Positions 15,121 to 64,000 of a stretch of 64,000 nt of DNA are shown here, one piece after another. The notes beneath the pieces were generated by a model, which ran no database searches, was not told where the DNA came from, and saw only the letters and a program-made list of their open reading frames with translations. Location of the stretch: the IMG/VR virus record IMGVR_UViG_3300021255_002056, positions 1 to 64,000 of that record; one strand, 5' to 3'. Position 1 is the first letter of the stretch, and each line of letters begins with the position of its first letter. Source of the DNA: a virus. Taxonomy: Duplodnaviria; Caudoviricetes. A program made the translations under genes and the position numbers.

Positions 15121-15228
15121 AAATATTTCCTCTCTTTCATAATACACTCTGTAATTCGCACGAAGGTTACGATGTGGTATGATGTAATCGGTTCGTACAT
15201 TGTCATAAGAGAAAGGAGAATATATTAC

Positions 15229-26400: not shown

Positions 26401-26564
26401 TTCGGAAATGCGATTCGTCCATTCCAATATGTACTATTAGTGATAAATACTAAATATTCGTTATTAGCTGGTACGTTATATCCATAATTTCCGTTTACAT
26501 CAAATATAATAGAGCATCTTAATCCATTTCCGGAATTTGATCCGAAATTTATTGCAAAACTCAT
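23457..26564 (-). CDS. DUF285/BspA-like leucine-rich repeat protein (putative adhesin)
   Basis: Dozens of 22-28 aa MFxxCxxLNQNIxxP repeats. Confidence 0.8.
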   Translation of the reverse strand: MSFAINFGSNSGNGLRCSIIFDVNGNYGYNVPANNEYLVFITNSTYWNGRIAFPNGTKKAQVFSCASFNREITLPESVTNCSHLLYNCQQFNKPVKIPQNVYSISNAFYNCGKLNSEINFLGPIENAERAFWRCSSFNNEILFRANISTENNVSFLRILDQCTQFNQNFIFPEYISSNASVQLEGMFGGCRNFNRSVIFPKHLSANNTITFQSMFDSCTNFNQNLIFPEYMHASRLTLSLIFSECSNLNQNIRFPEIDNVDGYSIWGAFRNCTNFNQNIKIPDSVTNVFSLFSSCTNLNQNIEIPKNVNSISSMFLDCSNFNQNTYIHDNIDSVYAAFCGTSISEEPYYENAKKIINAARVYKNCKYCNFKSVLLNSTSVNDYSFMYANCDNFNINIELPNHGNLVGIFSGCKNFNQNVFIPSTASTAYLFENCISLNYNIQIPSATSDSHSMFDGCSSLNQPISIPNGIVDADYMFRNCSVLNQPFVVNASSVTGMFSGCSNLNSSIIFNKEVVDDFMLVFSGCTSFDQPINIPSVVNATWGYHGLFNSCISFNQPVVFPQTHLQNVSFQNTFLNCQSFNQNFVFPNDYCLTLNYIFENCYSFNQNIQLPDFVNTSYGRNSYRMFYGCHSLDQNIHLPNNAVNLCSMFSHCYNLNQNIQIPVYANDMQWMFSNCYNLNQNIKLPDTGQKYSIYGMFANCIALNQNIRIPSNVRNIAAAFDGCSNLDQDILFECNCTDFTRLFQNCSSLNKPISFLNIPKSTASSQAIYVSTFANCINLNSPISFMTNNINAYHASQYMYVFKGCTKLNVPIKFEVHKPTYSAFNFDHALSDCTNFNSQVIFNFFNQSVSNTNGTVWAPYMFENCVNLNQNIVFPNAKNYSFAGTFKNCKALNQNIYLPSGINDAREMFFGCSNLCQNIFISDYCGNFGDHMFFGCTNMTDITLPNNSSSAVNSNFYNYFISHDPNKILNIYSKNSQMLDAIKNASNAIAYPNNSLMGEIVYYEEKFDNSLTPNLLNIRWFNAKYNIYLYRIYRL

Positions 26565-47725: not shown

Positions 47726-49558
47726 CTATTCTCCAGTAGTACCGTCAGCTGCTTTCAGAACGATAGCAGAGTGAGGAAGTACTAAAGCACCAGAGCAACG
47801 AGTTTCAATCAAATACTTCATCTTGTTGTAGTCGATATCGAAATCGTCGAACAGAGATACTTCGCCACCCTTGTTCATACCAACATTGTAGTCGTTCAGA
47901 TCGAGAGCAACAGCGTAAACATCTTCTGGCATAACGCTAGTCGGAACCTTGACAACACGGTCAACAGACATTGCAGAAGCAACTTCATTCATGCCTTTGT
48001 AAAGTCTCTGACCAATCTTATCTTCCATTAACAGAATGTCAGAAACGATATCAGTCCTAACGAATGCAGTGATGTTACCAGAACCCTCATAGTCGTCAAG
48101 AGACTTAACCATCTGATTAGTAACAGCATGAGCTAATGTTTCATCATCCTTAGGCGTAACGGTATATGCCATTGCATAAAGATTTTCTTCTGTATCCTTA
48201 ACAACTGGGATAATGTTTTGTTCATTGATCTTATCAGGATCAGTAGTAGATCTGCCATCACCGAAAATATAAGCACGTGCCCTTTCTTCATCAAGCTTCA
48301 TGCGCATTTCTTTCTTGACCCAAGCGATCATATCAATATCAGTGATATCGATGACATCGTCACGGTCAAAGCTCTGAAGCTTGTAAATAGTTGTCGGATC
48401 AACTTTTCTCTTTAAGAGTTTGAAGACTTCTTCGACCTTCTTAGTACCCTTAACATAACCCTTAGCTCTAGCTGTAGCAGGAGTAATGTCAGCGTGCGTC
48501 ATCTTGATCTTAGCGAACGGAGTCTTATGCACACCATTGTTGATTACAGAAATCCATCCATTAGGAATAGTGTTTACAAACGGAATATCGTTCGAAACAT
48601 TTCTATATTCCGGTGCCAAATAGTCAAGATGCTCAACACTATGAACAAGAACTTCTTCATTGTTCAGTCCATGAGCTAATAAAGATTCCTTAACAGAACC
48701 GTATCTCTTTGCATCCTGCAAAGCGCTCATAATTTCAGCAGACATGCCATCGTTTTCGATGACTTCTTCATTGTCAAACGCGTTATGCTTCATTTCTTTT
48801 TCCTCTTCTTCATCATCATTTTCGCCAGCAGAAGCTAAAGCTTCGCCGACAAGGTATTCAGTAACTTTTCTCTGTTCAGGCGTCATAGAATCTAAAACGT
48901 CTTTTACAGTCATATCATCTTTTTTATCAGCCATTTCTTTTTCCTCTCCGTTTTTGTCTGATTCATCAGCAGAATGAGTAAGTTCTTCTTTTCTTTCAGT
49001 TTCTTCTACCGTTTCTTTATCTTTAACTTCCTCTTTTTCTGATTCTTCAGGATCATCTACAACTTCGATTTCATCAGATTCGTCACTATGCTCGACAATT
49101 AAATCTTCGCCAGTATAGATTTCAGCTCCAACAGCTACTGGATCGTCATCAATACTGTGTGCCATCACATATTCAATCGATGCTCCAGGATTTGCTCCAG
49201 CAAGAACTAAGCTAACTTCTCTAATAACACCATGCAAAACATCACCATTAGGCGTTTGCTTCAATCCATTAGCAAAGATTGATAAGCTAGCAATGTCACC
49301 ATGCTGCAAAATAGCTTTAATCCTTTGTGATTTAGGAAGCTCATTGAAATAGCCATACGCTTTTACACCCTCATCGGAGTTCTTCAATAGCGCATGGCCT
49401 AAAATGTTGTCTGGATCATTATGCTGATGATTCCAAACAAGCGGTACGGTAACACCATCACAATCTTTGAACGCATTATGACGAATCGTTCTTCCGTCGG
49501 AGCATTTTAAATCGTTTCTAGTGGCCCAACCCCAAAAATCGTAATCTTTTTTAGCCAT
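47726..49558 (-). CDS. fused HK97-type prohead protease - scaffold - major capsid protein
   Basis: DF.GWAT...LVWNHQH...LSIFA...REVSLV..GANPGA protease; acidic linker; capsid C-half (FDDFDIDYNKMKYLIETRCSGAL). Confidence 0.88.
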   Translation of the reverse strand: MAKKDYDFWGWATRNDLKCSDGRTIRHNAFKDCDGVTVPLVWNHQHNDPDNILGHALLKNSDEGVKAYGYFNELPKSQRIKAILQHGDIASLSIFANGLKQTPNGDVLHGVIREVSLVLAGANPGASIEYVMAHSIDDDPVAVGAEIYTGEDLIVEHSDESDEIEVVDDPEESEKEEVKDKETVEETERKEELTHSADESDKNGEEKEMADKKDDMTVKDVLDSMTPEQRKVTEYLVGEALASAGENDDEEEEKEMKHNAFDNEEVIENDGMSAEIMSALQDAKRYGSVKESLLAHGLNNEEVLVHSVEHLDYLAPEYRNVSNDIPFVNTIPNGWISVINNGVHKTPFAKIKMTHADITPATARAKGYVKGTKKVEEVFKLLKRKVDPTTIYKLQSFDRDDVIDITDIDMIAWVKKEMRMKLDEERARAYIFGDGRSTTDPDKINEQNIIPVVKDTEENLYAMAYTVTPKDDETLAHAVTNQMVKSLDDYEGSGNITAFVRTDIVSDILLMEDKIGQRLYKGMNEVASAMSVDRVVKVPTSVMPEDVYAVALDLNDYNVGMNKGGEVSLFDDFDIDYNKMKYLIETRCSGALVLPHSAIVLKAADGTTGE

Positions 49559-49579: not shown

Positions 49580-50878
49580 TTAAATCTCAGATATTTTTAA
49601 TTCACCCAAGCTTTGATTTTCATTGCCATTGGATTGCCCTTCACTTTCCTCAGGAACAGTATCTGCGACATTCGGGAAATTATCGCCAGTTGCCTGGTTA
49701 ATGTTCTTATTTCTAAGTTCATTAGCTCTTGGATCGTCTGACGGAAGTAACCCAACTACCTGCCTGAATTCATTAGAAGACATAATTTCATTTCTCGTAA
49801 ACTTATCAGCTAACTCAGCAAGTTTAGATGTTGGCACAAGCTTGAATGGATCCCTAAAGAACGCTATTGACTGATGCTGTGTAATCGCGGTCTTTGTTAG
49901 AAACTTTCGTTTCATTTCATCTGCAATAGCTGAAACAATAGGCTCAATAGTTCGCGAGTAGTAATTGATCATAGTTTGCTCGTCAGCTGTTCCGTCAAGT
50001 ATCGCCGTAGTGATTCCTAACTGCCCGTATAAGATGTTTGTCAAGTATTCAATACGTGATAAAAGATCGTTCTCCAACGGACGATTCAACTGTGTGATCT
50101 TTTCTGTTGCGTCGACATATGCTATACCGTATTTACTTCCGGTAAGCTGCATCTCAATGTCTTTACGACGTTGCTCTGCTTGCTGCCTTTTTGTTTCAGT
50201 TTTAACTAAATAAGGCAACTGAATAATCATATCCAGTTTACCCGATCCGCTTTGTTCATCTACAATGTCCATTAACGTTAAAGTACGAATTAATCGCTGC
50301 AACGTTGAGTTTGGCTCATTCATTATTGAATATAGCGGATTTTCAATGATTGCAACGTTCTTTTTAGCAAACCATAATTCCTCATGACCGCCAGTTCGAT
50401 CGTTGTAAACATTGACCTTTACATTGTCGGGAGACCAACCAACGATCTTCCCGACACGTAAAGAGAGTATATCAAAAGACCCCTTATCGGGATCTATTGA
50501 TGTATCGATTGGTACAATTGCTATTGTGCCTTCATCAAACATTGACATAACAATATCTTGAATAAAAGCTCGTCCGGTCTGATCTTTATTTGCCGAAATT
50601 GATAAGCAATCGTTTAATCTTGAATCCATCTTGCTTACAAAGTAGCCATTAGCATCAAGCTTTACATGCTCGAATCTAATCTGCGCTACATCCAAAGCAA
50701 TACGGTTATAGATAGATGTGACTATAGTCCTCTCGTTTCCTCGAGACAATCTATGCCGATATGGATTGTATGATGAATAGGAAACCTGACCATAATCATA
50801 CATGTAAGGTTCAGGAGTCGGATCCCTATTCATGAAGGCGTTCCATGCGTGGATTAGCCTATCGCCGAATTTTGGCAT
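49580..50878 (-). CDS. portal protein
   Basis: IYNRIALDVA...ANKDQTGRAFIQD...NEIMSSNEFR motifs. Confidence 0.9.
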   Translation of the reverse strand: MPKFGDRLIHAWNAFMNRDPTPEPYMYDYGQVSYSSYNPYRHRLSRGNERTIVTSIYNRIALDVAQIRFEHVKLDANGYFVSKMDSRLNDCLSISANKDQTGRAFIQDIVMSMFDEGTIAIVPIDTSIDPDKGSFDILSLRVGKIVGWSPDNVKVNVYNDRTGGHEELWFAKKNVAIIENPLYSIMNEPNSTLQRLIRTLTLMDIVDEQSGSGKLDMIIQLPYLVKTETKRQQAEQRRKDIEMQLTGSKYGIAYVDATEKITQLNRPLENDLLSRIEYLTNILYGQLGITTAILDGTADEQTMINYYSRTIEPIVSAIADEMKRKFLTKTAITQHQSIAFFRDPFKLVPTSKLAELADKFTRNEIMSSNEFRQVVGLLPSDDPRANELRNKNINQATGDNFPNVADTVPEESEGQSNGNENQSLGELKISEI

Positions 50879-50903: not shown

Positions 50904-51314
50904 TTAATTTGTAGAACCTAACTGACTAATTAGAGACTCAATTACTCGCCTCTCACTTTCACTCTTGGCTCCATCCATCATAGTGCTCTCAAGTTGAGCA
51001 ATCATTCTATCTTTTACACTATGACCGCTATAGCCTCTGTCTATTGAATAATCATAAGATCTATCTGGATAATAATCACGGTATGAATTTCCATTATTCA
51101 TGTTATTATATCGTCCATAATACCTATTGGATCTCATACTATCCATAGAATATGAAGCATCTGAATCATGTTCTTCCACCATTTTGATTTTTTCTAAAAG
51201 ACAAACTGCTTTCGTTGCCATTTCTAATTCAGCAGGTGTAAGATCATTCTTTGCAGTAATTCTATCAAGCTCTTTTCCGACAAGTTTGCTGAGCTTTTCT
51301 AATGATTCATCCAT
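50904..51314 (-). CDS. helical protein with Y/D/S/R-rich low-complexity linker (cassette gene 6)
   Basis: ORF track. Confidence 0.6.
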   Translation of the reverse strand: MDESLEKLSKLVGKELDRITAKNDLTPAELEMATKAVCLLEKIKMVEEHDSDASYSMDSMRSNRYYGRYNNMNNGNSYRDYYPDRSYDYSIDRGYSGHSVKDRMIAQLESTMMDGAKSESERRVIESLISQLGSTN

Positions 51315-51328
51315 TGTTCCACTCCTCC

Positions 51329-51793
51329 TTATCGGCTAATAACAAGATCTGGCCTCGTTAAAATAATATTAGCGTTTTCAACCAATACTGCTTGTGAACT
51401 AGTGTTCACAACAGAAACGTTTTCACAGCAGCCATTCCATACTTCAACATTAATAGCTCTACTAACATTGAAATATGCATTAGCTTCAGTTGGTGTAACT
51501 ACCATTTCACTTGCAGGAATAATTGAACCATCAATAGACAACGCTAAAGAAATAGGTTCGACTGTTCCGCCTTCAGGAATTGCAATATTTGCACCAAAAT
51601 CAACTAAATACTGGGCCTCTTGTTTCTTGCAACAGCATCCGCATCTATTCGGTGTCCAGCCACTCAATAAGAAATTTCCAGAACCATCTCTATGTCGGAC
51701 GAATCCTCTAGTGCATGGCACTGGTGCGTCTGTAAAAACTACGACTCCTCCTTGAGCGACGGTCTGCGTGGCATTTGCACTGTATTCAGCCAT
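51329..51793 (-). CDS. BclA-C/C1q-like beta-sandwich protein (cassette gene 5)
   Basis: QTVAQGGVVVF...HRDGSGNF.L...YLVDFGANI...VSVVNTS..AV.V.NANI. Confidence 0.5.
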   Translation of the reverse strand: MAEYSANATQTVAQGGVVVFTDAPVPCTRGFVRHRDGSGNFLLSGWTPNRCGCCCKKQEAQYLVDFGANIAIPEGGTVEPISLALSIDGSIIPASEMVVTPTEANAYFNVSRAINVEVWNGCCENVSVVNTSSQAVLVENANIILTRPDLVISR

Positions 51794-51803
51794 ATGCCAC
51801 CTC

Positions 51804-52481
51804 CTAGTTGCAGCCGCAGTTGCCCCAACCAGAATTACAGCAATTTGGATTTGGTACAGTGTAAGCAGGGATCGGTGTAGGATTCAAATACTGTTCTAAC
51901 GCCTGAGTCTGAGCAGCATTATTAGCTAAAATCTGAGCTGTCTGAGCATTCTGAGATGCTGCAAGAGCCTGCATATTAAGCTGAGTCCTAAGCTGAGCAA
52001 TAGTTTCATTCTTAGCTTCGATTTCCTGCTGGCACATCTTATCAAGAATAGCCTGAGTATTAGCTGTGTTAGACGCAATAACATCTCTAAGAGCTTCGGT
52101 TAATGCGTTCCTATCCGCACAGTTCTCTGTAGCAACAGTGTATTTAATATCAGCAAGATTAGACGTAATGCCATTTAAAGCCTGAAGAGTATTCATATTG
52201 CCATTGCAACGTGAAACTTCGGCATTAGCAAATCCAGTAGATACAGCTGAAGTGAGACCATTAATACCGCTCATAACTGCCTGCTGATCAAAACCTTTTT
52301 GCATACCGCCATCTCCATATCCTCCGCGACCAAAAGTATTTCCGTTCATCATGAACAGGAATAATACTAAAAGCCACCAAGCTCCATCACCATTAAATCC
52401 AAAACCATTTCCATTGTTACCGCCAGTTACAGCTGCAACATCTGCTGCAGATAAACCAGAACCGTAATCAGTAAGCGCCAT
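51804..52481 (-). CDS. spore-coat-like protein (G/N-rich, W-rich TM, coiled coil, Cys-rich tail; cassette gene 4)
   Basis: GNGFGFNGDGAWWLLVLFLF...ENCADR...CCNSGWGNCGCN. Confidence 0.5.
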   Translation of the reverse strand: MALTDYGSGLSAADVAAVTGGNNGNGFGFNGDGAWWLLVLFLFMMNGNTFGRGGYGDGGMQKGFDQQAVMSGINGLTSAVSTGFANAEVSRCNGNMNTLQALNGITSNLADIKYTVATENCADRNALTEALRDVIASNTANTQAILDKMCQQEIEAKNETIAQLRTQLNMQALAASQNAQTAQILANNAAQTQALEQYLNPTPIPAYTVPNPNCCNSGWGNCGCN

Positions 52482-52513
52482 AGTGCGAATTTTACCTCCT
52501 TAATAATTATCTT

Positions 52514-52711
52514 CTAATAATTTCGCCCAGTAATAAGATTTGCGATTTCTCTAAGCTGATTAAACTCTTGCTGGGTCATCTGGCCAGAATTAAGAAGCTC
52601 CTGCACCTTTTGCTGCGGGGTCACATTCTGATTCTGACTTTGATATTGCTGAGCAAAATCATTAAAATTCTTCATTAACTGACCTAAATTATTTAACATC
52701 GGATTTATCAT
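52514..52711 (-). CDS. small Q/N-rich protein (cassette gene 3)
   Basis: PQQKVQELLNSGQMTQQEFNQL. Confidence 0.6.
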   Translation of the reverse strand: MINPMLNNLGQLMKNFNDFAQQYQSQNQNVTPQQKVQELLNSGQMTQQEFNQLREIANLITGRNY

Positions 52712-53111
52712 TTAAAGGTCCTTTCTTAGCTTTATAAAGCTGATTTCTGATTCCTTGAAATTGATTATCCAAGTATGTCTTTAAGTCATCAAGTTCCTTC
52801 TTAGTTACAAAGTAACTTTCTGAAGGATTAGCCTCTACTTTTGGGGTTGTTTCAGTAAATGAAAACGATCTCAAAAGCTGAGGAGTACCATTAGCAGCTG
52901 TTGATTTGATCCAAAATTGATTGGAATTCAAGTCCATTAAATACACGGTATTTCCTGCTGCAACCGGATAGTTGTTTGCTCCTGCTTCTCCGCTTACAAA
53001 AACTATAGTTGGTGGAACAGAATTATACGGTTGGAAACCACTAGTATTTAAGTTAGTACTGCCATAGGCATTAGGTGTTGGCTGAGTATAATTTGGATTA
53101 TAATAAGCCAT
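52689..53111 (-). CDS. hypothetical protein (cassette gene 2)
   Basis: VSGEAGA..YPVAAG.TV.LMD...FWIKS; start corrected. Confidence 0.6.
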   Translation of the reverse strand: MAYYNPNYTQPTPNAYGSTNLNTSGFQPYNSVPPTIVFVSGEAGANNYPVAAGNTVYLMDLNSNQFWIKSTAANGTPQLLRSFSFTETTPKVEANPSESYFVTKKELDDLKTYLDNQFQGIRNQLYKAKKGPLNDKSDVK

Positions 53112-53113
53112 TT

Positions 53114-53497
53114 TTATCTCTCCTTTCTCCAATAATAAATAGGAACTTCATCTCCGGAATCCCATGCATCATAGTAAAAACCATCTTTTACAGCCACCAC
53201 ATGCTCTCCTGTGGCTAAAAGAAAAGTTCCGTTTGGATTATCCTCGCAGAACTGTTTTACTGTGTAACAATCTGGACAGGTATTTGAAATATTAAATCGC
53301 ATATACCCTTTTGATTTAAGATATGATCCCCATACATTATTAGCTGATGGCATATCTTTCATCTCAAATCCTTTTAACATAACTTCGGTATACGTCTTAT
53401 CCCAAGATAAATCTAGTAATATAGATAGTCCTCGAATAACGCAATCACCAACTTTTATACCTTTTGGATTTGGATTATAGAATACAAATCTCTCCAT
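53114..53497 (-). CDS. putative papain-like cysteine peptidase (cassette gene 1)
   Basis: YNPNP...GDCVIR (Cys)...HVVAV (His)...YDAWDSG. Confidence 0.55.
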   Translation of the reverse strand: MERFVFYNPNPKGIKVGDCVIRGLSILLDLSWDKTYTEVMLKGFEMKDMPSANNVWGSYLKSKGYMRFNISNTCPDCYTVKQFCEDNPNGTFLLATGEHVVAVKDGFYYDAWDSGDEVPIYYWRKER

Positions 53498-53508
53498 TTT
53501 GATTTATA

Positions 53509-54516
53509 CTAATTAAAGTGCCCGAACAAATATTGTGCTATTAATTCTGTAGAAGTATGTGTGGAATTTGCGATATTCTTAATACTTGTTCCAGAATTAA
53601 ATAACTCTCCTATTTTTTTAATTTGTTCTTTAGTTAATGTGTAACCGCTATATGTCATATCTCTTTCTTTATCTTTATTCTTATCTTTATTCTTATCTTT
53701 ATTCTTATCTTTATCTTTATTTTGTTTATTAGTTTCGTATACGTTTATGTCATTTGTTTCTTTATACTTATCATTTAAAGCTTTCGTTCTGTTATAGTCA
53801 GCTTTTTTATTTTCTATATTTGCTAAATTATTCATATACTCCGACTCTTTTTTAGCAGCCGCATACTTATCTTCTGCAGTGTCTTTTTTAGTCATATTAT
53901 TAATTGCTGCTTCGATAAGTTTCTTACCAGCATCTTGCATTGCCGGAACAACAACCTTATCCATCATTAACTTGGTAAACTGTTCACCTCTTGAAACTGG
54001 TTTTGGATCAAGTTCTTTGATTTTATTTCTAACATCAGCAGCATCTTTTTCAAGTTTTAATCTAGCAATATATTTTTCAAGCTGTTTATCAGTTAATTCT
54101 GAAATATTTTTATTTCTTGGCGAACGATTTTTTTCCGTATTAATTTTTGTGTAATCATCAACTTTCTTATTTAGCTGCTTTTTAGTGTCATTAATATCGT
54201 CTACTGTCGCTTTTTCATCAGCAGCTTTAGCCAATTTTCGTGCAGTACTAGTAATTCCCTTCAATTTTGGGGACATGGCATTATCGATCGCTTTTCTTTC
54301 AGCTCTGGTGGTTTTAATATATTTTCCATCAGCTGCTTTACGATACTTATAAACGCCACTAGATGTCATAATATACTCGCCAGATGAAAGTTTTCTATAG
54401 CGTGCTTTGCCCTCCTCGGTTAAAGAACCATCAGGATTTTGATAGCGTCGTACACCCCATTTTTGACCGAGGATTCCATGATGATACAATTCATCTTTTG
54501 TCAAATAATACTCCAT
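53509..54516 (-). CDS. LxH-leader internal virion protein
   Basis: ELYHHGILGQKWGVRRYQNPDGSLT; KDKNKD 12-bp tandem repeat near 53665-53718; C-terminal HTH-like segment. Confidence 0.7.
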   Translation of the reverse strand: MEYYLTKDELYHHGILGQKWGVRRYQNPDGSLTEEGKARYRKLSSGEYIMTSSGVYKYRKAADGKYIKTTRAERKAIDNAMSPKLKGITSTARKLAKAADEKATVDDINDTKKQLNKKVDDYTKINTEKNRSPRNKNISELTDKQLEKYIARLKLEKDAADVRNKIKELDPKPVSRGEQFTKLMMDKVVVPAMQDAGKKLIEAAINNMTKKDTAEDKYAAAKKESEYMNNLANIENKKADYNRTKALNDKYKETNDINVYETNKQNKDKDKNKDKNKDKNKDKERDMTYSGYTLTKEQIKKIGELFNSGTSIKNIANSTHTSTELIAQYLFGHFN

Positions 54517-54531
54517 TTTGAATCCTCCAGA

Positions 54532-55110
54532 TTACTGATTGCGTTGATGAGAATATTTATCTTCCAAATAATCTGCAAAGCTGTCCCAACCGGTTTCCCC
54601 TCCGTAAAGAACTATAGTATTAACTGCATAGTTGCTATATTCTCTTAATAATGATTGAAGCGAAGAACTATCTTTTGGCGTAATGGAATCTAATTCCATA
54701 TCATATTTACGCAAAATAGCATTTATCTTGTCTAGTTTTGCTTGAAGTTTTCTTGTCTTTGAACTTAAACTATTTGCTTTGATCTCAGCTCTTCTAGCTT
54801 TTTCTTCAAGCTTTGCTGCTTTTTCTTTGGATGTAAACAGTCCAGTTTCTTTTTTTCTAAGTTTCGCAGCTTTATTCTCAAGCTTAGCTATCTTAGTTCC
54901 ATGCTTTTGTGTTTCTTTATCTATCTCGGATTGTATGTCTTTGGCTTTTTTTACATAATTATCATATTCGCCTCTTAACTCGGCGTAACGAATTTTGCCT
55001 TCTGGAGTTAATGAGCCATCCGGATTCTGATAACGACGAATTCCCCATTTTTGTCCGAGAATTCCATGATGCTCTAAATAATCTTGCTTAGTTAAATAAT
55101 ATTCGCTCAT
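54532..55110 (-). CDS. LxH-leader internal virion protein, coiled coil
   Basis: YLEHHGILGQKWGIRRYQNPDGSLT; start corrected to MSEYY. Confidence 0.7.
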   Translation of the reverse strand: MSEYYLTKQDYLEHHGILGQKWGIRRYQNPDGSLTPEGKIRYAELRGEYDNYVKKAKDIQSEIDKETQKHGTKIAKLENKAAKLRKKETGLFTSKEKAAKLEEKARRAEIKANSLSSKTRKLQAKLDKINAILRKYDMELDSITPKDSSSLQSLLREYSNYAVNTIVLYGGETGWDSFADYLEDKYSHQRNQ

Positions 55111-55114
55111 AATA

Positions 55115-55366
55115 TTAGTCCTCCAATAAACTAATAGATAGTTCTTTTCCACCTATAAATTCTTCATATGAAATCATAGTTGGAGAAAAAACACTTACCC
55201 TACCAGTTTTCTTTTCAACTCCAACCAAACTATCCAATTCATTTTCGTTAGGATCGAGACGGTAATCAAACACAAAATATGATTCGTATTCAATTAAATT
55301 GCACAATGTCAGTCCTTCAGAAAAATCTGATTCTTTCACAATTTTATATGCTTCTTTTAATGTCAT
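55115..55366 (-). CDS. putative immunity protein (Imm35/YrhB-like) for the upstream papain toxin
   Basis: 83 aa acidic protein; EY..YFVF.Y......V.VEKKTG.V; directly downstream of the toxin. Confidence 0.55.
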   Translation of the reverse strand: MTLKEAYKIVKESDFSEGLTLCNLIEYESYFVFDYRLDPNENELDSLVGVEKKTGRVSVFSPTMISYEEFIGGKELSISLLED

Positions 55367-55382
55367 ATTTTTCTCCTAACGC

Positions 55383-57209
55383 TTAATGACGCAATTTTTT
55401 AGCATACTCAAGATCATCAACCCAATCCATGTAATCATCAATTTCAGATTGTGCTCCATATGCATCAAGAGTATCTATAATTTCTTCGCAAATATCTTCA
55501 AGCTCGCTATATGTCATAGACATTTTATTCTTTCCAGCAGGATGCAAAAGTTCATTTTTACTGATTTTGTTTTCTTCCAAAGCTTTGGTGTAATAGTTAT
55601 ACATATTTAAATAAACCCAAGCAATTTGCTCATTTTTATCAGCTGTATAATTACCATGATCAGCAATATCCGTAGGACATGTAACAAATGAAATTCTTTC
55701 AGTGTCTACTTCAAGATTATCCGTTCTTAGTAAATAAACTCCTGAAAGACCCGTTTTTTCTTTATTAGTTTTGTCCATGGCAGTTGTTTTAACCAAATAT
55801 TCAGTAATGTCTATTTCATGATCAGGGTTGCCAATTCTTTTTTCATCCGGTTGAGTATCAATAAATGTAACTACGCCATTATGAACTTCGTAATTAAATA
55901 TGTGAGCACTAGACGGATACCAGTCAACACTTATAAAACCGGTTGAATCTTTTCCATTAGATTTTTTAAGTATTTTGGAAATTAAAGAATCTTTAAGTTT
56001 TCCAGCAACTTCGTAATCTTGTTCTTTATTCTTATATGGCTTATAAGTATCATCTAAAGTCTTATAAACATCTGAAAAATCTAAATGATCAAATTTTGGA
56101 GATGTAAGACCGTTCTTTGTTTTATAAAAACTAGCTATTTCCGAAAGAGGCAATCCTTTAAAAATATTAGGTATAGCTTTTACGTCAACACCTTTTAAAC
56201 GCAGATCATAAGCTATTGAACAAGAATAGCAGTTTTTCTGAAAAAGTTCTTTATCTGATCTAAAATAAGGATTTACTGCATCTCTACTTTTTTGTATTGA
56301 AGTCTTTTCGCTTATAGGCTTAAATACTTTAGATAGATCCTTATTTTTCTCAATAAAGTCATTAAATGAGCTGTTAACGTTTTTAGCTGCATCATTTGCT
56401 TTTTTTATAAAACTATTAATAAAAGAAATACCATTTTTCGTGAATTCTTTTCTTTTATTATTAATTGAGGTTTTGGCATCGCCTATTTTATTATTAACCG
56501 TGTTTTCAATAGCATTCTTAGCATCAGAAATTGCATTCCTAGCATAGTCAGCCATATTTAATACTCTATTTTTTTCTTTATTTATTTTTGACGTGACTTT
56601 AGATTTTGTATTATCTATTGTGTCATTAACAATTGTGTTGATAGATTTAATTTTTCTATTAACTATATCTTTAGATTTTTCTACAAAATTTTTACCTTTT
56701 TCACTTTTCTTTTTATCAAGTTTTTCAATTTTTTCGCTTTTCTTTTTATCAAGTTTTTTAACTTTTTCTGAATATTTTGTAAAAGGAACTTTCTTTGAAA
56801 CTACTTCACTAGACTCATTTTGAGTCTCTTTTTTTCTAGCATTAGTCTTTGGACCAAATGCTTTTCGTTTCTCTGAATTATTTGAATCATTTTTATCTTC
56901 AGAATTTGTGTCTTTCTGACTAGATGTTTTATATGGTTTGAACAAATTAGCAAATATATTTGTAATACTATTTTTTGCTAGAACAAATGAACGTTTATTT
57001 GTAAAACCAGTTTTTCCTCTGCTATAAGCATCGTATTCAGCTTTCGTATAAAAATACTTGTATTTTGGTTTTGAATCTGAACCAAGATTTATTCTCTCAT
57101 AATATTTATGATGTTCTTTTTTACCGCCTAATTTAATTCCCCAGTGATATAATTCATTTTCCTTATGGATAGCATACTCTTGATTATGTTTTTCCATAGT
57201 GCAGTTCAT
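55383..57209 (-). CDS. LxH-leader protein with C-terminal papain-fold toxin (Tox-PL-like) domain
   Basis: ELYHWG leader; NCYSCSIAYDLRLKG...W..S.AHIFNYEV.NG....IDTQ (Cys-His-Asp). Confidence 0.75.
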   Translation of the reverse strand: MNCTMEKHNQEYAIHKENELYHWGIKLGGKKEHHKYYERINLGSDSKPKYKYFYTKAEYDAYSRGKTGFTNKRSFVLAKNSITNIFANLFKPYKTSSQKDTNSEDKNDSNNSEKRKAFGPKTNARKKETQNESSEVVSKKVPFTKYSEKVKKLDKKKSEKIEKLDKKKSEKGKNFVEKSKDIVNRKIKSINTIVNDTIDNTKSKVTSKINKEKNRVLNMADYARNAISDAKNAIENTVNNKIGDAKTSINNKRKEFTKNGISFINSFIKKANDAAKNVNSSFNDFIEKNKDLSKVFKPISEKTSIQKSRDAVNPYFRSDKELFQKNCYSCSIAYDLRLKGVDVKAIPNIFKGLPLSEIASFYKTKNGLTSPKFDHLDFSDVYKTLDDTYKPYKNKEQDYEVAGKLKDSLISKILKKSNGKDSTGFISVDWYPSSAHIFNYEVHNGVVTFIDTQPDEKRIGNPDHEIDITEYLVKTTAMDKTNKEKTGLSGVYLLRTDNLEVDTERISFVTCPTDIADHGNYTADKNEQIAWVYLNMYNYYTKALEENKISKNELLHPAGKNKMSMTYSELEDICEEIIDTLDAYGAQSEIDDYMDWVDDLEYAKKLRH

Positions 57210-57212
57210 TAT

Positions 57213-57521
57213 TTAACGTTTTTTGTTTAATAAGTCCCTTAATATATCACTGGTAGGCTTATTATACTTTTTAATTTTTATGCTAGTAGTTCTAATTCCA
57301 TTTAGCAATCTTGCTATGAATCTTTTTCCTTTATATGCAAGTCTATCTGCTCTTTTTTGAATGTCGTCTAACCCATTTTCTTTATTTGAAGAATCATCGT
57401 CTGATAATTTATCTCCATATAAATAATAGGTTTTTCCGTTTTTTACATATTTTGAAATATACTTATGCTTCTTCCATCCAGATCCTTTTGCCGAATGATA
57501 TAACTCATATCCCATAAACAC
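57213..57521 (-). CDS. small LxH-leader protein
   Basis: YELYHSAKGSGWKKHKYISK....K..Y.Y. Confidence 0.65.
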   Translation of the reverse strand: MFMGYELYHSAKGSGWKKHKYISKYVKNGKTYYLYGDKLSDDDSSNKENGLDDIQKRADRLAYKGKRFIARLLNGIRTTSIKIKKYNKPTSDILRDLLNKKR

Positions 57522-57527
57522 ATCTCC

Positions 57528-57767
57528 TCAAATAATCTTCTTTCCAGATCTGTATTGGTCTAAAGGAATATCAAATGGAAAGAACGCTTTGATTTCCTTT
57601 GTTGTTTTATTAATAGAAAAACTTCTATTTAAAGGACCTTCATCTTGATGTTTAATTACATAATCATTCGGTATTAAATTAAACACCAAAATATCGCCAT
57701 AGTCATAAACCGAATCAATTATGTATGACGGAAAGGCATTATTAATTATTTCCTTGTATTCTTCCAT
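57528..57767 (-). CDS. putative immunity protein (Imm35/YrhB-like) for the upstream papain toxin
   Basis: 79 aa; DY...LVF......FSINKTTKEI; overlaps the toxin stop. Confidence 0.55.
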   Translation of the reverse strand: MEEYKEIINNAFPSYIIDSVYDYGDILVFNLIPNDYVIKHQDEGPLNRSFSINKTTKEIKAFFPFDIPLDQYRSGKKII

Positions 57768-58738
57768 GAACTCTTCCTTTCGTGTTCAATGGCGTTTATG
57801 TATTTAATAGATCCATTTTGATAAATCAACAGATAGCATAAACTATTCTGCTTGAGATGAACCTTTATAAAAGTTTTGTACCTTGTAACTGCAAAATTGT
57901 TTAGTCTAAACTGACTAGCTAAACAGTCTAACGATAGTAACGCATAGTCATTATCCTTTGGGCAAGTTGTGTCGAATAGTTTATTCTTCACACATTTTAA
58001 AATACGTTCGGTAGGCTCTTCGTTATCTGTACGAAAGTAATATAGTCTATTTAAGTAATCATAGTATTCACTTAAATATCGAATTTTACTATGCTGGCAA
58101 TCTCTTAAAATTACTCTGCCATTCAATACCTCATAAATTAATGAATGAGCACCACCAAAAGTCCACATTAAACTAATCTGTCCTCTTGCGTTGTTACCCT
58201 GACTAATCAATTCTTCTTCTATATCAGAACAAGAATAATTAGAGGTGCTCATATACCGGTATCCAGGATACTCTTCATCAAAACGCTTCTGTTTCAACTC
58301 TTTGCCATCGTAAAACGGAGCAGAGTTTTTATGTGTCCACCAAGAATAAATCTCAAATATACTATTAATACTAGAATCAATATCAGAATTGTTATGATAA
58401 TCGTCTGCTTCTACGTCAAAACCTCTTCTTCGGAGATCGTACGCTGCAGAACAATAAGCGCAATTAATAGTAAATGCTTGATCATCTTTAAGATAAGGAT
58501 TAACTCGCTGCATATCATCATTCATACTCATTGGAAATTGTTTTCGCTTAAGATCGGATAATTTATCAGGATTATCCTCTGAAACTTGATTAAGCATTAA
58601 TTGAATAGAGTTTTTCCAATTGATTAAAATATTTAACTCTTTTAATCCTTTGCCGTTTGCAGTTAATTTCAATCCTCTATTAATATTCGCTAAAAGTTTT
58701 GACTTACTGCTTTTCGGAGACCTGATAAACTCATTCAT
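57746..58738 (-). CDS. papain-fold toxin (Tox-PL-like), no LxH leader
   Basis: NCAYCSAAYDLRRRG...W..GGAHSLIYEV.NG....RDCQ. Confidence 0.75.
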   Translation of the reverse strand: MNEFIRSPKSSKSKLLANINRGLKLTANGKGLKELNILINWKNSIQLMLNQVSEDNPDKLSDLKRKQFPMSMNDDMQRVNPYLKDDQAFTINCAYCSAAYDLRRRGFDVEADDYHNNSDIDSSINSIFEIYSWWTHKNSAPFYDGKELKQKRFDEEYPGYRYMSTSNYSCSDIEEELISQGNNARGQISLMWTFGGAHSLIYEVLNGRVILRDCQHSKIRYLSEYYDYLNRLYYFRTDNEEPTERILKCVKNKLFDTTCPKDNDYALLSLDCLASQFRLNNFAVTRYKTFIKVHLKQNSLCYLLIYQNGSIKYINAIEHERKSSWKNTRK

Positions 58739-58748
58739 AACTTATCTC

Positions 58749-60512
58749 CTAAAAACTATCTTTGTTATGTTTAAACGCAACAAAAGCGTCAAGCATTGCT
58801 GCTACGCAGTCTATTTTCTGATCGGAACGTTTCTTATATAACTTCCGGTTTCCATTAGTATCTTCCAAAGTAATACAGTTGCCCATTGCAAAGTTCATGA
58901 TTAATTCATCAAATAAAAGAAGCCTCTGTTCAGAAAGCTTCTTTAATTCTCCTAATGGAACAGATTCTGTTCTAGCACCCTGAATAACTTTTTCAACTCC
59001 AAATGGTCCATGCTCTGTTTCCCATCGCTCTACAAATTCTTTTGCATTATACGGGTCAAATCCAAAGCAGTTAACATCATAGCCATGAACATCTATAAAT
59101 CTATCTAGGTCATCATAGACTTCCATCATGTCTAAAATTGTTCCATCCATGATCATCAGGCTGCCTTCTTTGACAAAATCATCGTATTTACTCTTAAGCG
59201 CTGACGGTAATTTGTCATAAGTAAATGAGCTTATATAGTTTCTAGTCTTTACACCAAAGGCGTCACCTCTAAGTGGGAACAAAAATGTAAACGCACAAAA
59301 GTCATCACCCTGAGACATATCTGCTCCAAGAGAACACTGCATTTTATCAAATGATCTAAAATGGTGAGGAAGAGTTTCTTCGTACGGAAAATAATATGTA
59401 TAACCTTCCAAAGGAATTCCAAATCTCTTAGCCAGAATATCGTTTCTATTTGATGGAGATTTCTCAGCTCGCTCCTTATCCAACTGGTAGGTTTCATAGC
59501 TTACTGTAATACCTAGATTTGGATTCGCTTTAACCCACATAGCAGGATCGTCAACCTCTTCAACAGAATCCAATCTGTAATACCAGATCGATACTCTTGG
59601 GTTGATGTAATCTCCTTTAAGTATGTCGATTAGCTCCATTTTGATAGTATCACCTGGGCCATTTCGAACTGTACCTTCTGAAGAAGTAGCAACAATCAAA
59701 TAGTCGTTTACTTCTTCAATACCACCTTGCTCCTTAGTACAAGACTGCTCAATAGCGCCAATGACGTCTTCCCTTGTATCTCCAGACAACCATTCATCGA
59801 CTGTTGCGATCTTAACACGATAACCCTGAAGCTTATCACGGCTCATAGGTTTTACTTCGATCGTAGATCCGGTAATAAAATTCTGAATACCTTTCTTAGT
59901 AGAGGCAAGCTTTACTCTATCAGCTCTATTACCGGTTGTGTTTTGTAAAGATCCGTAGGTCATGAACTTGAACATAGGTCCTCTAGATCGATTAATAGCC
60001 GTTCGGATCGGAGATAGCACTTCATCAGCTTGAGCCATTGTTGGAGCTGTAACTGTTTGGCCATTAGCACTACGATCACAGATCAGAAAATATGCCTGAA
60101 GAAAAGCTGCATACATAGACTTTGCAGCACCTCTGGCAATAATTAAATATTGTTTTGTAATTAGGCGTTTCTTAAAATATTTGCTAACATAGTGGCCTCC
60201 TCGTCCGTTAGGATCTGGAACCCATACACTACGTTCAACAAAGTAATACCATCCAAAAATCTGTTCTGACCAAAGCTTAAACGACTCAAGCATTTTAACA
60301 TCGCCACCGTTTGTAAGAGTTAATTCATTCTCACAAAAAGCAACAAAGCCATTCATTGCATCAGGATCATAGTAGACTCCTGGATTACTAATAAGATCAT
60401 CGATACGGTTCATCTCCATAGCGATGTACTTATTAATTTTTGTCTCTCCTCTCATTACGGAATCTCTAAATCTACCGTAATATATCGGTACGGCAGTATT
60501 AGACAACGGCAT
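58749..60512 (-). CDS. terL: terminase large subunit
   Basis: Walker A ARGAAKS, Walker B IATVDEW, nuclease GADMSQGDD and KIDCVAAMLDA. Confidence 0.93.
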   Translation of the reverse strand: MPLSNTAVPIYYGRFRDSVMRGETKINKYIAMEMNRIDDLISNPGVYYDPDAMNGFVAFCENELTLTNGGDVKMLESFKLWSEQIFGWYYFVERSVWVPDPNGRGGHYVSKYFKKRLITKQYLIIARGAAKSMYAAFLQAYFLICDRSANGQTVTAPTMAQADEVLSPIRTAINRSRGPMFKFMTYGSLQNTTGNRADRVKLASTKKGIQNFITGSTIEVKPMSRDKLQGYRVKIATVDEWLSGDTREDVIGAIEQSCTKEQGGIEEVNDYLIVATSSEGTVRNGPGDTIKMELIDILKGDYINPRVSIWYYRLDSVEEVDDPAMWVKANPNLGITVSYETYQLDKERAEKSPSNRNDILAKRFGIPLEGYTYYFPYEETLPHHFRSFDKMQCSLGADMSQGDDFCAFTFLFPLRGDAFGVKTRNYISSFTYDKLPSALKSKYDDFVKEGSLMIMDGTILDMMEVYDDLDRFIDVHGYDVNCFGFDPYNAKEFVERWETEHGPFGVEKVIQGARTESVPLGELKKLSEQRLLLFDELIMNFAMGNCITLEDTNGNRKLYKKRSDQKIDCVAAMLDAFVAFKHNKDSF

Positions 60513-60515
60513 TGG

Positions 60516-60875
60516 TTAGATCTCTCCTATCTCTCCAACATAATTTTGTGTAATAAAACCTCTCCACTCCAATTCGTCAATAGTTTCTTTTAAAGCTGTT
60601 GCTAAAGTGGATGAAGTCGGCGGATCAAAAATAGATTTAGTTTTTAATCCTGCCCAAGTAATGAGAGTTCTTAAATTTATCGGCTGACCTTTAATTAAAA
60701 TATCGGACCACTTAGATGTATTGTCTTTGATTGTGTGAGCTTCATCAGATAAGCCTTCCTGGTAGACAATAAATAGTACTGCATTAATAGCAATTATTAA
60801 ATCTCTATCAAAGTCCGTATTTCTTCGATCAATTCCGATTACATCTTTAATCGAATCTAAAATACTTTGATCCAT
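60516..60875 (-). CDS. head-tail connector (gp6-like)
   Basis: SILDSIK...FDRDLIIAIN...FDPPTSS...ELEWR. Confidence 0.75.
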   Translation of the reverse strand: MDQSILDSIKDVIGIDRRNTDFDRDLIIAINAVLFIVYQEGLSDEAHTIKDNTSKWSDILIKGQPINLRTLITWAGLKTKSIFDPPTSSTLATALKETIDELEWRGFITQNYVGEIGEI

Positions 60876-62312: not shown

Positions 62313-64000
62313 TCAAGCTTTCAAAGCCTTGGCAATAGTACTTGCTGAAACACCAAGGGCTGCGGCTATTTCGGCATTAGTCTTTCCACTTTGTGACATT
62401 GCTTTTGCTCGGCTCTTCATTGCGTCTGTCATGACTTTTCTTGAACTCGGTGTAGCTCTCTCCCTTAGCTTATCCGTGTCTGTATGGTCAAGTACTTTTC
62501 TTAAAGTATTAGCATGAACTGCACCAGCTTGAATGGCTTCCCAAATGCTATCTGTAATTGTGATTTCATTCCTTTGAGCTCCTACTCTAGCCCTAGCCTT
62601 GGTGAGTTCTACCTGCCTCAGTTTCTTCTTATCTTCCTTCTTAATGTCTGGATTACTCTGTACTTTAGCTTTGAAGTTTACTGTAGCTATTACTTGAGCT
62701 TGTCTTTCTCTAGGCTTATTCTTAGTTGATAGGTCTAACTGGTTCTCAAGCTCTTGTACCTCATTAGCGTATTTCTTAGCTGCAGCACTGCTGTATTCAG
62801 AACCTTTAGTATCATAACTAAGCTTCCTAGCCTGGTTGGCTAGGCTCTTCATAGTATTAGCATAAGAAGCATAAAGCTGTTCCATAGGGGAATTACTATC
62901 AGATATTAAAGTTCTAGCATCATCTGTTTCAGCCATCTTTGTGCTTGGCTGTGTACGAGTTTTCTCTATTATCTTTACTTCCCCAGTCTTTTTATTAACC
63001 TTCTCTATTGTATACCTAGCTTTAGGATCTTCTTTGTATAGCAATGCTCCTTCAGGTTTAGATGGATCATAATCTGGGCGACCCTTAATATTTATTCTTG
63101 GCTGGCCTTTTCTTCTTACTACATCTTTCTGAGACTTAGCCATTGAAATAAGAGTTGACGCACCATATACTTCTTTTCCTTCTTCATCCAGATGAGCTTG
63201 ATACTTCTTTTTAAGGCGTTCAATCTCATTCTGAGCGTAACTCGATTGGTAATCAAGTTTATGCTTTTCCGCATCAATAACAACCATTGAATGACGAACT
63301 GCTTTTGCTAATTCATCTTCTGTAGCACCTTTAATGGTCATATCATTGATAAGATTTGAAATACGCCCCATTTCATTTTGAGTATTCTTCATTACTTTAA
63401 ATTCGTATCCTGCTTTATTAAAGTAATGCTTATTACCATTCTTATCTTCGTAAGTCTTACTAGGATCGCAGCCATATACTTCTTTTGGCTCAAATCCTTC
63501 TAAGCCTTTCAAAGACTTTCCATTGTTATTCTTGATTCTGATAGTACTGTTTGTCGGAATTACCATAACAGTATCACCATCAAAATCAGCTCCAGAAAGC
63601 TTTTCTGCAACAGAAGCATTAATACCGACAGCATCTCTTGAGTTCTTGCCGATCATTGCAACACCATCTTTCTGTTTATTATTAACAGTTAGAATTGGTA
63701 TCTCAAATGGTCCACCATGCGGATAACGAATTAACGCGACCTGTTCACCATCTTTATAGTTAGGTGCATAGATTTCATTACTTTTCATAGACGGAATAGG
63801 TAAAATAACCTGGAACTTCTGTCTTGGTAAAGCCGCTGCCGTTAGGTGAACTGCTGACGAATCACAATCACTTGCAAATGAGTCTAAGTAATACTTTTTA
63901 AGCGTATTATTTTCAAGACTCATAATGTCTTTTAACTCTTCTTGCTTTTCAAGAACAGCTAAATTCAACTGTCTCTTTGCTAACTGAACTGTTTGTTTAG
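62313..64000 (-). CDS. two-barrel (double-psi beta-barrel) DNA-dependent RNA polymerase, 5'-truncated by the window
   Basis: LIRYPH...LSGADFDGDTV catalytic motif; frame stays open to the window edge; C-terminal HTH. Confidence 0.85.
   Translation of the reverse strand, partial: KQTVQLAKRQLNLAVLEKQEELKDIMSLENNTLKKYYLDSFASDCDSSAVHLTAAALPRQKFQVILPIPSMKSNEIYAPNYKDGEQVALIRYPHGGPFEIPILTVNNKQKDGVAMIGKNSRDAVGINASVAEKLSGADFDGDTVMVIPTNSTIRIKNNNGKSLKGLEGFEPKEVYGCDPSKTYEDKNGNKHYFNKAGYEFKVMKNTQNEMGRISNLINDMTIKGATEDELAKAVRHSMVVIDAEKHKLDYQSSYAQNEIERLKKKYQAHLDEEGKEVYGASTLISMAKSQKDVVRRKGQPRINIKGRPDYDPSKPEGALLYKEDPKARYTIEKVNKKTGEVKIIEKTRTQPSTKMAETDDARTLISDSNSPMEQLYASYANTMKSLANQARKLSYDTKGSEYSSAAAKKYANEVQELENQLDLSTKNKPRERQAQVIATVNFKAKVQSNPDIKKEDKKKLRQVELTKARARVGAQRNEITITDSIWEAIQAGAVHANTLRKVLDHTDTDKLRERATPSSRKVMTDAMKSRAKAMSQSGKTNAEIAAALGVSASTIAKALKA

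Follow-up and report, generated by a model that had tools for sequence, protein, structure and literature searches.

The interval between the large terminase (terL) and portal genes of IMG/VR virus record IMGVR_UViG_3300021255_002056 encodes two papain-fold proteins, ToxA and ToxB, two small acidic proteins, ImmA and ImmB, and a set of basic proteins. Several of these begin with a short leader that carries an L-x-H motif and is either of the DUF7211 type (PF23847) or of a second type, called type-2 here. The window, the whole stretch of DNA analysed, is the first 64 kb of this 85,080-bp record, which is rated complete by CheckV. Nearly all genes of the genome lie on the minus strand, and the coordinates of all open reading frames (ORFs) of the noted region were checked and their minus strand confirmed. 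An earlier note on the window had read the region as a toxin-immunity system packaged into the virion without a MuF domain. The head-module genes are listed in transcription order, from the connector protein to the protease-capsid fusion (aa, amino acids; HMM, hidden Markov model; AF2, AlphaFold2).

60516-60875 (-): connector protein, first of the head-module row, 5' of terL
58749-60512 (-): large terminase terL, upstream anchor of the variable region (PF20441, E 1.3e-32; phrog_9, E 1.5e-105)
57746-58738 (-): ToxA, leaderless Tox-PL1 papain-fold protein, 330 aa (PF15644, 22.7-24.1 bits)
57528-57767 (-): ImmA, acidic candidate immunity or inhibitor protein, 79 aa (family alignment with ImmB; AF2 fold)
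57213-57521 (-): basic protein, 102 aa, with little beyond a type-2 leader, ELYH...KKHKY...YYLY (type-2 leader HMM, E 2e-3)
55383-57209 (-): ToxB, type-2 leader and Tox-PL1 domain, 608 aa (PF15644, 31.1 bits; type-2 leader HMM, E 2e-11)
55115-55366 (-): ImmB, acidic candidate immunity protein of the ImmA family, 83 aa (family HMM, E 2.9e-26, as a training member)
54532-55152 (-): DUF7211-leader protein, 206-aa ORF with a coiled-coil basic body, its likely true start being the ATG at 55110 (PF23847, 21.9-25 bits; own leader HMM, E 9e-23)
53509-54516 (-): DUF7211-leader protein, 335 aa, isoelectric point (pI) 9.5, with a Lys-rich low-complexity body (PF23847, 30.1 bits; own leader HMM, E 1.3e-24)
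50904-53497 (-): six-gene block of 127, 147, 65, 225, 154 and 136 aa (PHROG families of unknown function)
49580-50878 (-): portal protein, downstream anchor of the variable region (PF04860, E 4e-19)
47726-49558 (-): fusion of prohead protease, acidic scaffold-like linker and major capsid protein (PF05065 on aa 380-602)

Tox-PL1 domains and their small partners

On profile, residue and model evidence, ToxA and ToxB are true Tox-PL1 domains. ToxB clears the PF15644 cut-off of 24.1 bits and ToxA lies at the threshold, with 22.7 bits by hmmscan and 24.1 bits in the genome search, so that the profile check proposed by the earlier note came out in its favour. The two proteins are paralogues, with 30% identity between ToxA and the C-terminus of ToxB (E 7e-19), and the intact triads that had been noted between terL and portal could be located residue by residue: N92-C93 (NCAYC), H198 and D213-x-Q215 in ToxA, and N326-C327 (NCYSC), H436 and D451-x-Q453 in ToxB. 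This NC-H-DxQ signature defines the Tox-PL1 family (Zhang et al. 2012, PMC3482391). Across an alignment of 150 homologues N92, C93, H198 and Q215 are invariant and D213 is at least 90% conserved. Searched in full with HMMER, 1.84 billion cluster representatives yielded 1,955 ToxA relatives at E<=1e-3. When 117 database matches were tested together with ToxA and ToxB, PF15644 matched 115 of the 119 sequences, and none of the 119 carried a MuF, WXG/LXG or RHS domain.

The AF2 model of ToxA (predicted local distance difference test score, pLDDT, 90.2) has a papain-like alpha+beta fold, with an N-terminal helical hairpin, a core at aa 56-253 and an extra C-terminal alpha/beta domain. The last of these, at aa 262-330 (57746-57955), is confidently modelled as a helix-plus-four-strand domain behind the papain core. 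ToxB runs from its type-2 leader (aa 17-66) through a Lys/Ser-rich basic linker into the Tox-PL1 domain (aa ~300-520) and an acidic tail. Structural alignment of the ToxA core (residues 56-244) with VIA-align gave SpvD as the best match, at Z 9.8 over 153 residues, followed by OspI (Z 7.9), AvrPphB (Z 7.6) and C39 leader peptidases (Z ~7); matches to MepS, Tse1 and a phage endolysin were weak (Z 4.6-5.0). SpvD, OspI and AvrPphB are injected papain-fold effectors, and OspI is a glutamine deamidase. A Foldseek search of the PDB with ToxA returned nothing at E<=0.001, and a sequence search of the PDB with the Tox-PL1 profile found nothing.

Each enzyme gene is directly followed by a gene of 79-83 aa, as the earlier note had described: the ImmA gene overlaps the ToxA stop by 22 nucleotides (nt) and the ImmB gene begins 16 nt past ToxB. 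Both products are acidic (pI 4.9 for ImmA and 4.35 for ImmB), the range of the partner proteins (pI 4.3-4.9) contrasting with that of the cargo proteins (pI 9.1-10). Pairwise similarity between ImmA and ImmB is weak (E 7e-4), and both align in one family. An ORF of 79-98 aa from this single family lies directly after Tox-PL1 in 11 of 11 cassettes, namely the two of the window, those of L009, L011, L039, L043, L066 and L087, which were selected by terL (80 related viral loci were retrieved in this way), and those of L095, L096 and L100, which came from unrelated look-ups. The partners in L095, L096 and L100 stood outside the training set of the family profile and match it at E 1.6e-20, 1.9e-19 and 1.5e-7, while the profile matches no further ORF in the 80 loci; the pairing is counted as 11 of 11 on these two grounds.

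The earlier note had invoked Imm35-type immunity genes, a family tied specifically to Tox-PL1 (Zhang et al. 2012, PMC3482391). The Imm35 HMM (PF15567) has no match in the whole genome at E<=10, and none of nine members of the small-protein family matches any Pfam family, Imm35 included, at E<=1. The constant position beside Tox-PL1 agrees with the note, and the predicted fold resembles that of Imm35. The AF2 model of ImmA (pLDDT 89) has an alpha plus four-stranded beta fold that superposes on an Imm35 cluster representative with TM-scores of 0.66/0.60 over 70 residues (root mean square deviation 2.6), the fold being small and common. Alignment of the partner family with the YrhB/Imm35 alignment by hhalign gives a probability of 22.6% (E 9.2e-4, 31 columns, 35% identity) and falls on a shared C-terminal '...K-x-[ST]-G-E...' hairpin, and a language-model search placed an Imm35 cluster at 0.81, which is a lead only. 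Among solved structures ImmA has weak matches (Z ~5) to PepSY, BLIP-like and cystatin-like folds; the family profile matches no PDB sequence, and a word-based search with ImmA retrieved three proteins only, the family being virus-associated with few database relatives. We read the small proteins as a divergent, virus-associated, Imm35-like family of candidate inhibitors whose membership in Imm35 proper is unproven. The interpretation of each pair as a candidate toxin with its immunity protein is well supported by comparative genomics and predicted fold, toxicity and immunity themselves being what we infer from it.

Leaders and cassette turnover

Four proteins of the locus bear an L-x-H leader: the 102-aa protein, ToxB, and the 206-aa and 335-aa proteins. 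The earlier note was right about the number and the motif, but its single shared leader resolves into two kinds and ToxB is itself one of the four. DUF7211 occurs only in the 206-aa and 335-aa proteins, which are 79% identical across their first 48 residues; against a cut-off of 27 bits the 335-aa protein scores 30.1 and the 206-aa protein 25, just below it, and the latter is recovered by a lineage-specific HMM at E 9e-23. The consensus is the 25-residue motif E-L-x-H-[HYW]-G-I-K-G-x-K-W-G-V-R-R-Y-Q-N-x-D-G-x-L-T. The leader of ToxB and the 102-aa protein has the consensus L-Y-H...D-H-K-Y-I-x-R...K-W-R-Y-F-Y-T-x-x-E-Y-x-A-Y-L ('HKY...RYFY'), belongs to no Pfam family and gives no match to DUF7211, and heads most of the 150 closest Tox-PL1 homologues. 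No homology between the two leader types was detectable by hhalign and a joint alignment leaves L-x-H alone in common, so they are not called one family here. The DUF7211 profile has no match among PDB sequences, and literature searches on DUF7211 and the motif letters returned no relevant paper and no publication that describes the tag system.

Diverse C-termini behind a constant leader, which the earlier note had expected, are found on a large scale. DUF7211 is known from over 3,300 database proteins, 184-587 aa long, where it is nearly always N-terminal and followed by mutually unrelated C-termini, occasionally with GNAT or CW_7 domains. Among the 80 relatives, at least one DUF7211 ORF occurs in 76 loci, located either immediately behind the connector gene or in the terL-portal interval, and in 124 of 140 cases the motif begins no later than residue 35. 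Three arbitrarily chosen database DUF7211 proteins all lie in connector-terL-portal-S78/capsid modules, and in Gordonia phage Kenosha all four genes between terL and portal carry DUF7211. Tox-PL1 is present in only ~7 of the 80 loci, against the near-universal DUF7211, and the toxin is therefore accessory and the tag core. The DUF7211 tag is thus a core head-module feature of the lineage and not a chassis dedicated to toxins.

The content of the locus changes rapidly. The terL-portal gap measures between 18 bp and 7.8 kb in the 80 relatives, the window holding the largest array. The sister genome L009 has a terL protein 100% identical to that of the window and upstream DNA that is 97.7% identical; ToxB and ImmB are missing from it and other leader proteins occur instead. 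Homology to L009 stops at 57451, the end of the leader of the 102-aa protein, and resumes at 53504; within this interval alignment is confined to leader-coding patches (72-79%). Cargo exchange by recombination at conserved leader DNA, as it occurs in polymorphic toxin systems, would be expected to leave such a pattern, and variability among relatives is what the earlier note had proposed to look for.

ToxA differs from ToxB in having no leader. Its close relatives are either leaderless as well (L011, P0124-P0126) or fused to a type-2 leader (P0127, P0129-P0131), and leaderless ToxA genes always adjoin a leader-only gene, whose product is the 102-aa protein in the window and a protein of 148 aa in L009 and of 165 aa in L011. 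In L009 a separate gene for a 148-aa type-2-leader protein lies between terL and ToxA on a 458-bp segment (L009:11721-12218) that is cleanly missing from the window at 58740-58746. The possibility that this L009 leader ORF and ToxA form one split gene was rejected because two stop codons lie between them. A leader-only neighbour could serve as a non-covalent adaptor for the leaderless enzyme.

Two genes outside the terL-portal interval bear on the nature of the phage and of its leaders.

62313-64000, continuing to ~65309 of the genome (-): C-terminal part of a 998-aa two-barrel RNA polymerase homologue (phrog_4291, 1083 bits; GADFDGD motif)
15172-16302 (+): tyrosine integrase (PF00589, E 3.7e-13)

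The integrase gene marks the phage as temperate. The polymerase homologue has a GADFDGD catalytic loop, a C-terminal helix-turn-helix and, at its N-terminus, a third leader variant (L-x-H-Y-G...G-R-Y-P-W-G-S-G, here beginning L-M-H-Y-G) that matches DUF7211 weakly. Among relatives, Tox-PL1 carries a DUF7211 leader in L066, a type-2 leader in L043, L095 and L096 and a polymerase-type leader in L039, and the fusion of all three variants to the same enzyme argues that they do the same job.

The phage falls in a supercluster with Lactococcus phage 1706, Faecalibacterium phage FP_oengus, Rhodococcus phages ReqiPepy6/Poco6 and Arthrobacter, Gordonia and Streptomyces phages; this 1706/Oengus/actinophage supercluster has been described (bioRxiv 10.1101/842583). 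By blastn against a phage collection, terL was the sole match of the locus. The terL-portal gap also holds unrelated genes, namely the six-gene block and, in FP_oengus, a reverse-strand gene. The six-gene block travels as a unit, being located 5' of portal in the window and in L009 (94-99% identity between them) and upstream of terL in L042 and L087. Its members include a 127-aa protein with a Cys...His...Asp pattern, for which a sequence search of the PDB found nothing, a Gly-rich 225-aa protein with a Cys-rich tail and a Cys-rich 154-aa protein. Elsewhere in the window, a 1,035-aa tail-region protein (23457-26564) combines seven DUF285 repeats with BspA-type leucine-rich repeats and adjoins a family-2 glycosyltransferase gene (22312-23439), and a 2,518-aa ORF just upstream of the distal tail protein gene (37304-44860) is probably the tape-measure protein.

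Proposed capsid delivery and its alternatives

We interpret the region, part of the head module of a temperate siphophage, as a hypervariable series of cargo cassettes, for which delivery by the capsid is the most economical explanation, with a probability of about 0.55. In this model, each cassette protein would consist of a short N-terminal L-x-H leader, a Lys/Ser-rich linker and an exchangeable C-terminal body, and be basic overall, and two cassettes hold Tox-PL1 papain-fold cysteine enzymes, each with a small acidic candidate inhibitor of Imm35-like predicted fold. The leader would dock the protein in the assembling procapsid, with either the portal or the acidic scaffold portion of the protease-capsid fusion as its docking site, and the cargo would exit with the DNA to act in the next host cell; the RNA polymerase with its related leader would be delivered likewise. 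Once inside, the Tox-PL1 enzyme would cleave or deamidate a host protein, while in the producing or lysogenic cell the small partner would keep it silent. Recombination at conserved leader-coding DNA would swap cargo between phages.

No MuF domain (PF04233) is found in the whole 85,080-bp genome at E<=1, as the earlier note had stated for the region, and a carrier of another kind is proposed here. We infer packaging and ejection from gene position and from the annotation of Lactococcus phage 1706, in which ORF7 and ORF75 are labelled 'structural protein' (GenBank EU081845.1; a depositor annotation, not traced to data). ORF7 lies directly upstream of terL and contains two DUF7211 cores and a type-2-like motif. 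ORF75 is the homologue of the RNA polymerase protein, and its label, with the same reservation, suggests a virion-packaged polymerase. Further, ReqiPoco6 gp015 (L091:14111-15727) and gp13 of Gordonia phage Kenosha, both encoded upstream of terL, have a 2H-phosphoesterase ('RNA ligase') domain at the N-terminus and a DUF7211 motif in the interior. The same 2H-phosphoesterase recurs in proteins of Microbacterium and Arthrobacter phages annotated as 'capsid maturation protease and MuF-like fusion protein', which argues that one cargo rides either carrier. The acidic linker of the protease-capsid fusion (aa 125-330) contains five [LIVMF]-x-H-[SGA] motifs, at aa 132, 155, 193, 294 and 304, the last of them ~10 residues ahead of where the capsid domain is predicted to begin, and 3-5 such motifs occur at similar places in the linkers of all 52 relatives examined. 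In these relatives the motif accounts for 56% of the linker His residues; composition alone would predict 4.8%, and the figure for the capsid domain is 8%, the relatedness of the sequences inflating the statistic. The linker motif looks like a putative prohead-protease site code in common with the cargo leaders.

More tentatively, and with the odds somewhat against it, the DUF7211, type-2 and polymerase variants of the L-x-H leader might represent one capsid-loading code, read by the protease, scaffold or portal in phages of both Actinobacteria and Firmicutes, through which the RNA polymerase would be injected along with exchangeable effectors, Tox-PL1 toxins with their Imm35-like antidotes among them.

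Several observations weigh against delivery by the capsid as set out above. The 'one shared leader' may be two independent devices, to judge from the lack of any similarity beyond L-x-H. The leaderless ToxA-like clade is conserved, and at least one toxin here may be unpackaged or adaptor-dependent. Most DUF7211 proteins have no recognisable enzyme domain, and many could be structural proteins and not effectors. On the side of immunity, the small proteins fail the Imm35 HMM and their profile match to that family is of low probability (22.6%).

The leaderless state of ToxA and its clade speaks for a model in which the Tox-PL1 genes and their small partners are unpackaged intracellular morons of a toxin-antitoxin, abortive-infection or superinfection-exclusion-like kind, inserted in a recombination-prone gap. 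The phage is temperate and the gap is a hotspot that accepts unrelated genes such as the six-gene block and the FP_oengus reverse-strand gene, both of which would fit such a model. It is nevertheless unlikely, as every gene is oriented like the late head genes and closely spaced with them, and ToxB and most of the 150 homologues carry leaders that are otherwise marks of head-module proteins.

A second model takes the DUF7211 and type-2 proteins to be mainly structural or assembly factors, such as internal core, DNA-condensing or portal-associated proteins, with Tox-PL1 bodies as occasional passengers in morphogenesis. In its favour, 76 of 80 relatives have one DUF7211 protein or more, often a single one directly upstream of terL; the bodies are strongly basic and low in complexity, few have enzyme domains, and the 1706 ORF7 label, as a depositor annotation not traced to data, points the same way. 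We consider it improbable all the same. Copy number and C-termini vary freely among near-identical phages, which is unusual for essential parts, some bodies are GNAT, Tox-PL1 or 2H-phosphoesterase domains, and a protein with a purely structural role would hardly call for an inhibitor gene of its own.

Still less probable is a role for Tox-PL1 as a processing peptidase that trims leaders or frees cargo in the capsid or on ejection, although processing has been suggested for MuF-Tox-PL1 proteins (Zhang et al. 2012, PMC3482391), the fold is near that of C39 leader-peptide peptidases (Z ~7) and L-x-H motifs are common to the leaders and the protease-capsid linker. Leaders are near-universal but the enzyme is found in only ~7 of 80 loci, an S78-type prohead protease is already encoded by the phage, and two paralogues at 30% identity, each with its own inhibitor, suit effectors better. 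Finally, virion-associated cell-wall hydrolases of NlpC/P60 or CHAP type for peptidoglycan penetration, to which the membership of such lysins in the papain superfamily, the weak fold matches to MepS, Tse1 and a phage endolysin, and the CW_7 cell-wall-binding repeats of some DUF7211 proteins might point, are very improbable given that the highest-scoring fold matches (Z 7.6-9.8) are to proteases and deamidases that act as intracellular effectors, that the family is PF15644 and neither NlpC/P60 nor CHAP, and that a wall hydrolase free of a signal peptide would not need a cytoplasmic acidic inhibitor.

Delivery of the cassette proteins by the capsid would have consequences beyond this phage. To our knowledge, every phage-borne polymorphic toxin known so far has the MuF head protein as its carrier. 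In a lineage that spans phages of gut Firmicutes and soil Actinobacteria, almost all accessory genes near terminase and portal are marked by the leaders. If they are loading signals, a Pfam domain of unknown function in thousands of proteins would be explained, the route by which the RNA polymerase and effectors enter the cell would be revealed, and a short portable tag for loading proteins into capsids would be at hand; should a single loading code prove true, it would constitute MuF-independent and naturally modular protein delivery by the phage capsid. Cultured relatives, including Lactococcus phage 1706, Faecalibacterium phage FP_oengus and Gordonia DJ-cluster phages, make the idea directly testable.

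Comparison with known systems

For the leaders, T4 provides a functional parallel. Capsid-targeting sequences on the T4 internal proteins IPI-III and on Alt direct these proteins into the prohead, from which they are injected. In both systems a short N-terminal peptide is common to otherwise unrelated proteins and a protease-type motif is present in cargo leaders and scaffold, L-x-E in T4 and L-x-H here. The two are unrelated in sequence, and the phage described here is an HK97-type siphophage with a protease-capsid fusion, in which cleavage and packaging are putative. Unlike in T4, the conserved part of the leader lies downstream of L-x-H, and it may therefore stay on the mature protein. Pfam DUF7211 captures the motif at the N-termini of the 206-aa and 335-aa proteins; it excludes the type-2 leader of ToxB and the 102-aa protein.

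The partner proteins share with Imm35/YrhB a length of ~80-95 aa, acidity and a Tox-PL1 neighbour, resemble it in predicted fold and in a C-terminal hairpin, and are set apart by the lack of a match to the Pfam HMM and by the conserved Trp of Imm35, which is not conserved in the partner family. A functional precedent for such a pair is Cpe1-Cpi1, an experimentally proven papain-like cysteine-protease toxin and immunity protein of type VI secretion (T6SS) and contact-dependent inhibition (CDI) systems (PMC12136450). The likeness lies in an antibacterial papain-fold protease neutralised by a small cognate binding protein, which is proven for Cpe1-Cpi1. The sole link between the systems is a weak Foldseek match of ToxA (E 1.6e-2) to an entry titled 'Papain-like cysteine protease toxin/immunity pair'; Cpe1 belongs to another, C39-like, papain clade, is delivered by T6SS/CDI and not by phage, and Cpi1 is an unrelated protein.

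The closest relatives in overall logic are the MuF polymorphic toxins of temperate phages, which include MuF-Tox-PL1 fusions (Zhang et al. 2012, PMC3482391; Jamet et al. 2017, PMC5576092). As here, they are encoded in the head module beside terminase and portal, in temperate phages of the gut Firmicutes type, and have an exchangeable C-terminal toxin, of the same Tox-PL1 family, with a small downstream immunity-type gene. Unlike them, the present phage has no MuF domain in its genome, a leader of 25-50 residues takes the place of the folded MuF domain, several cassettes stand in tandem, and ToxA is without any carrier. The toxin family and the head-module logic are thus known from MuF-Tox-PL1, and it is the putative carrier that is new and undescribed.

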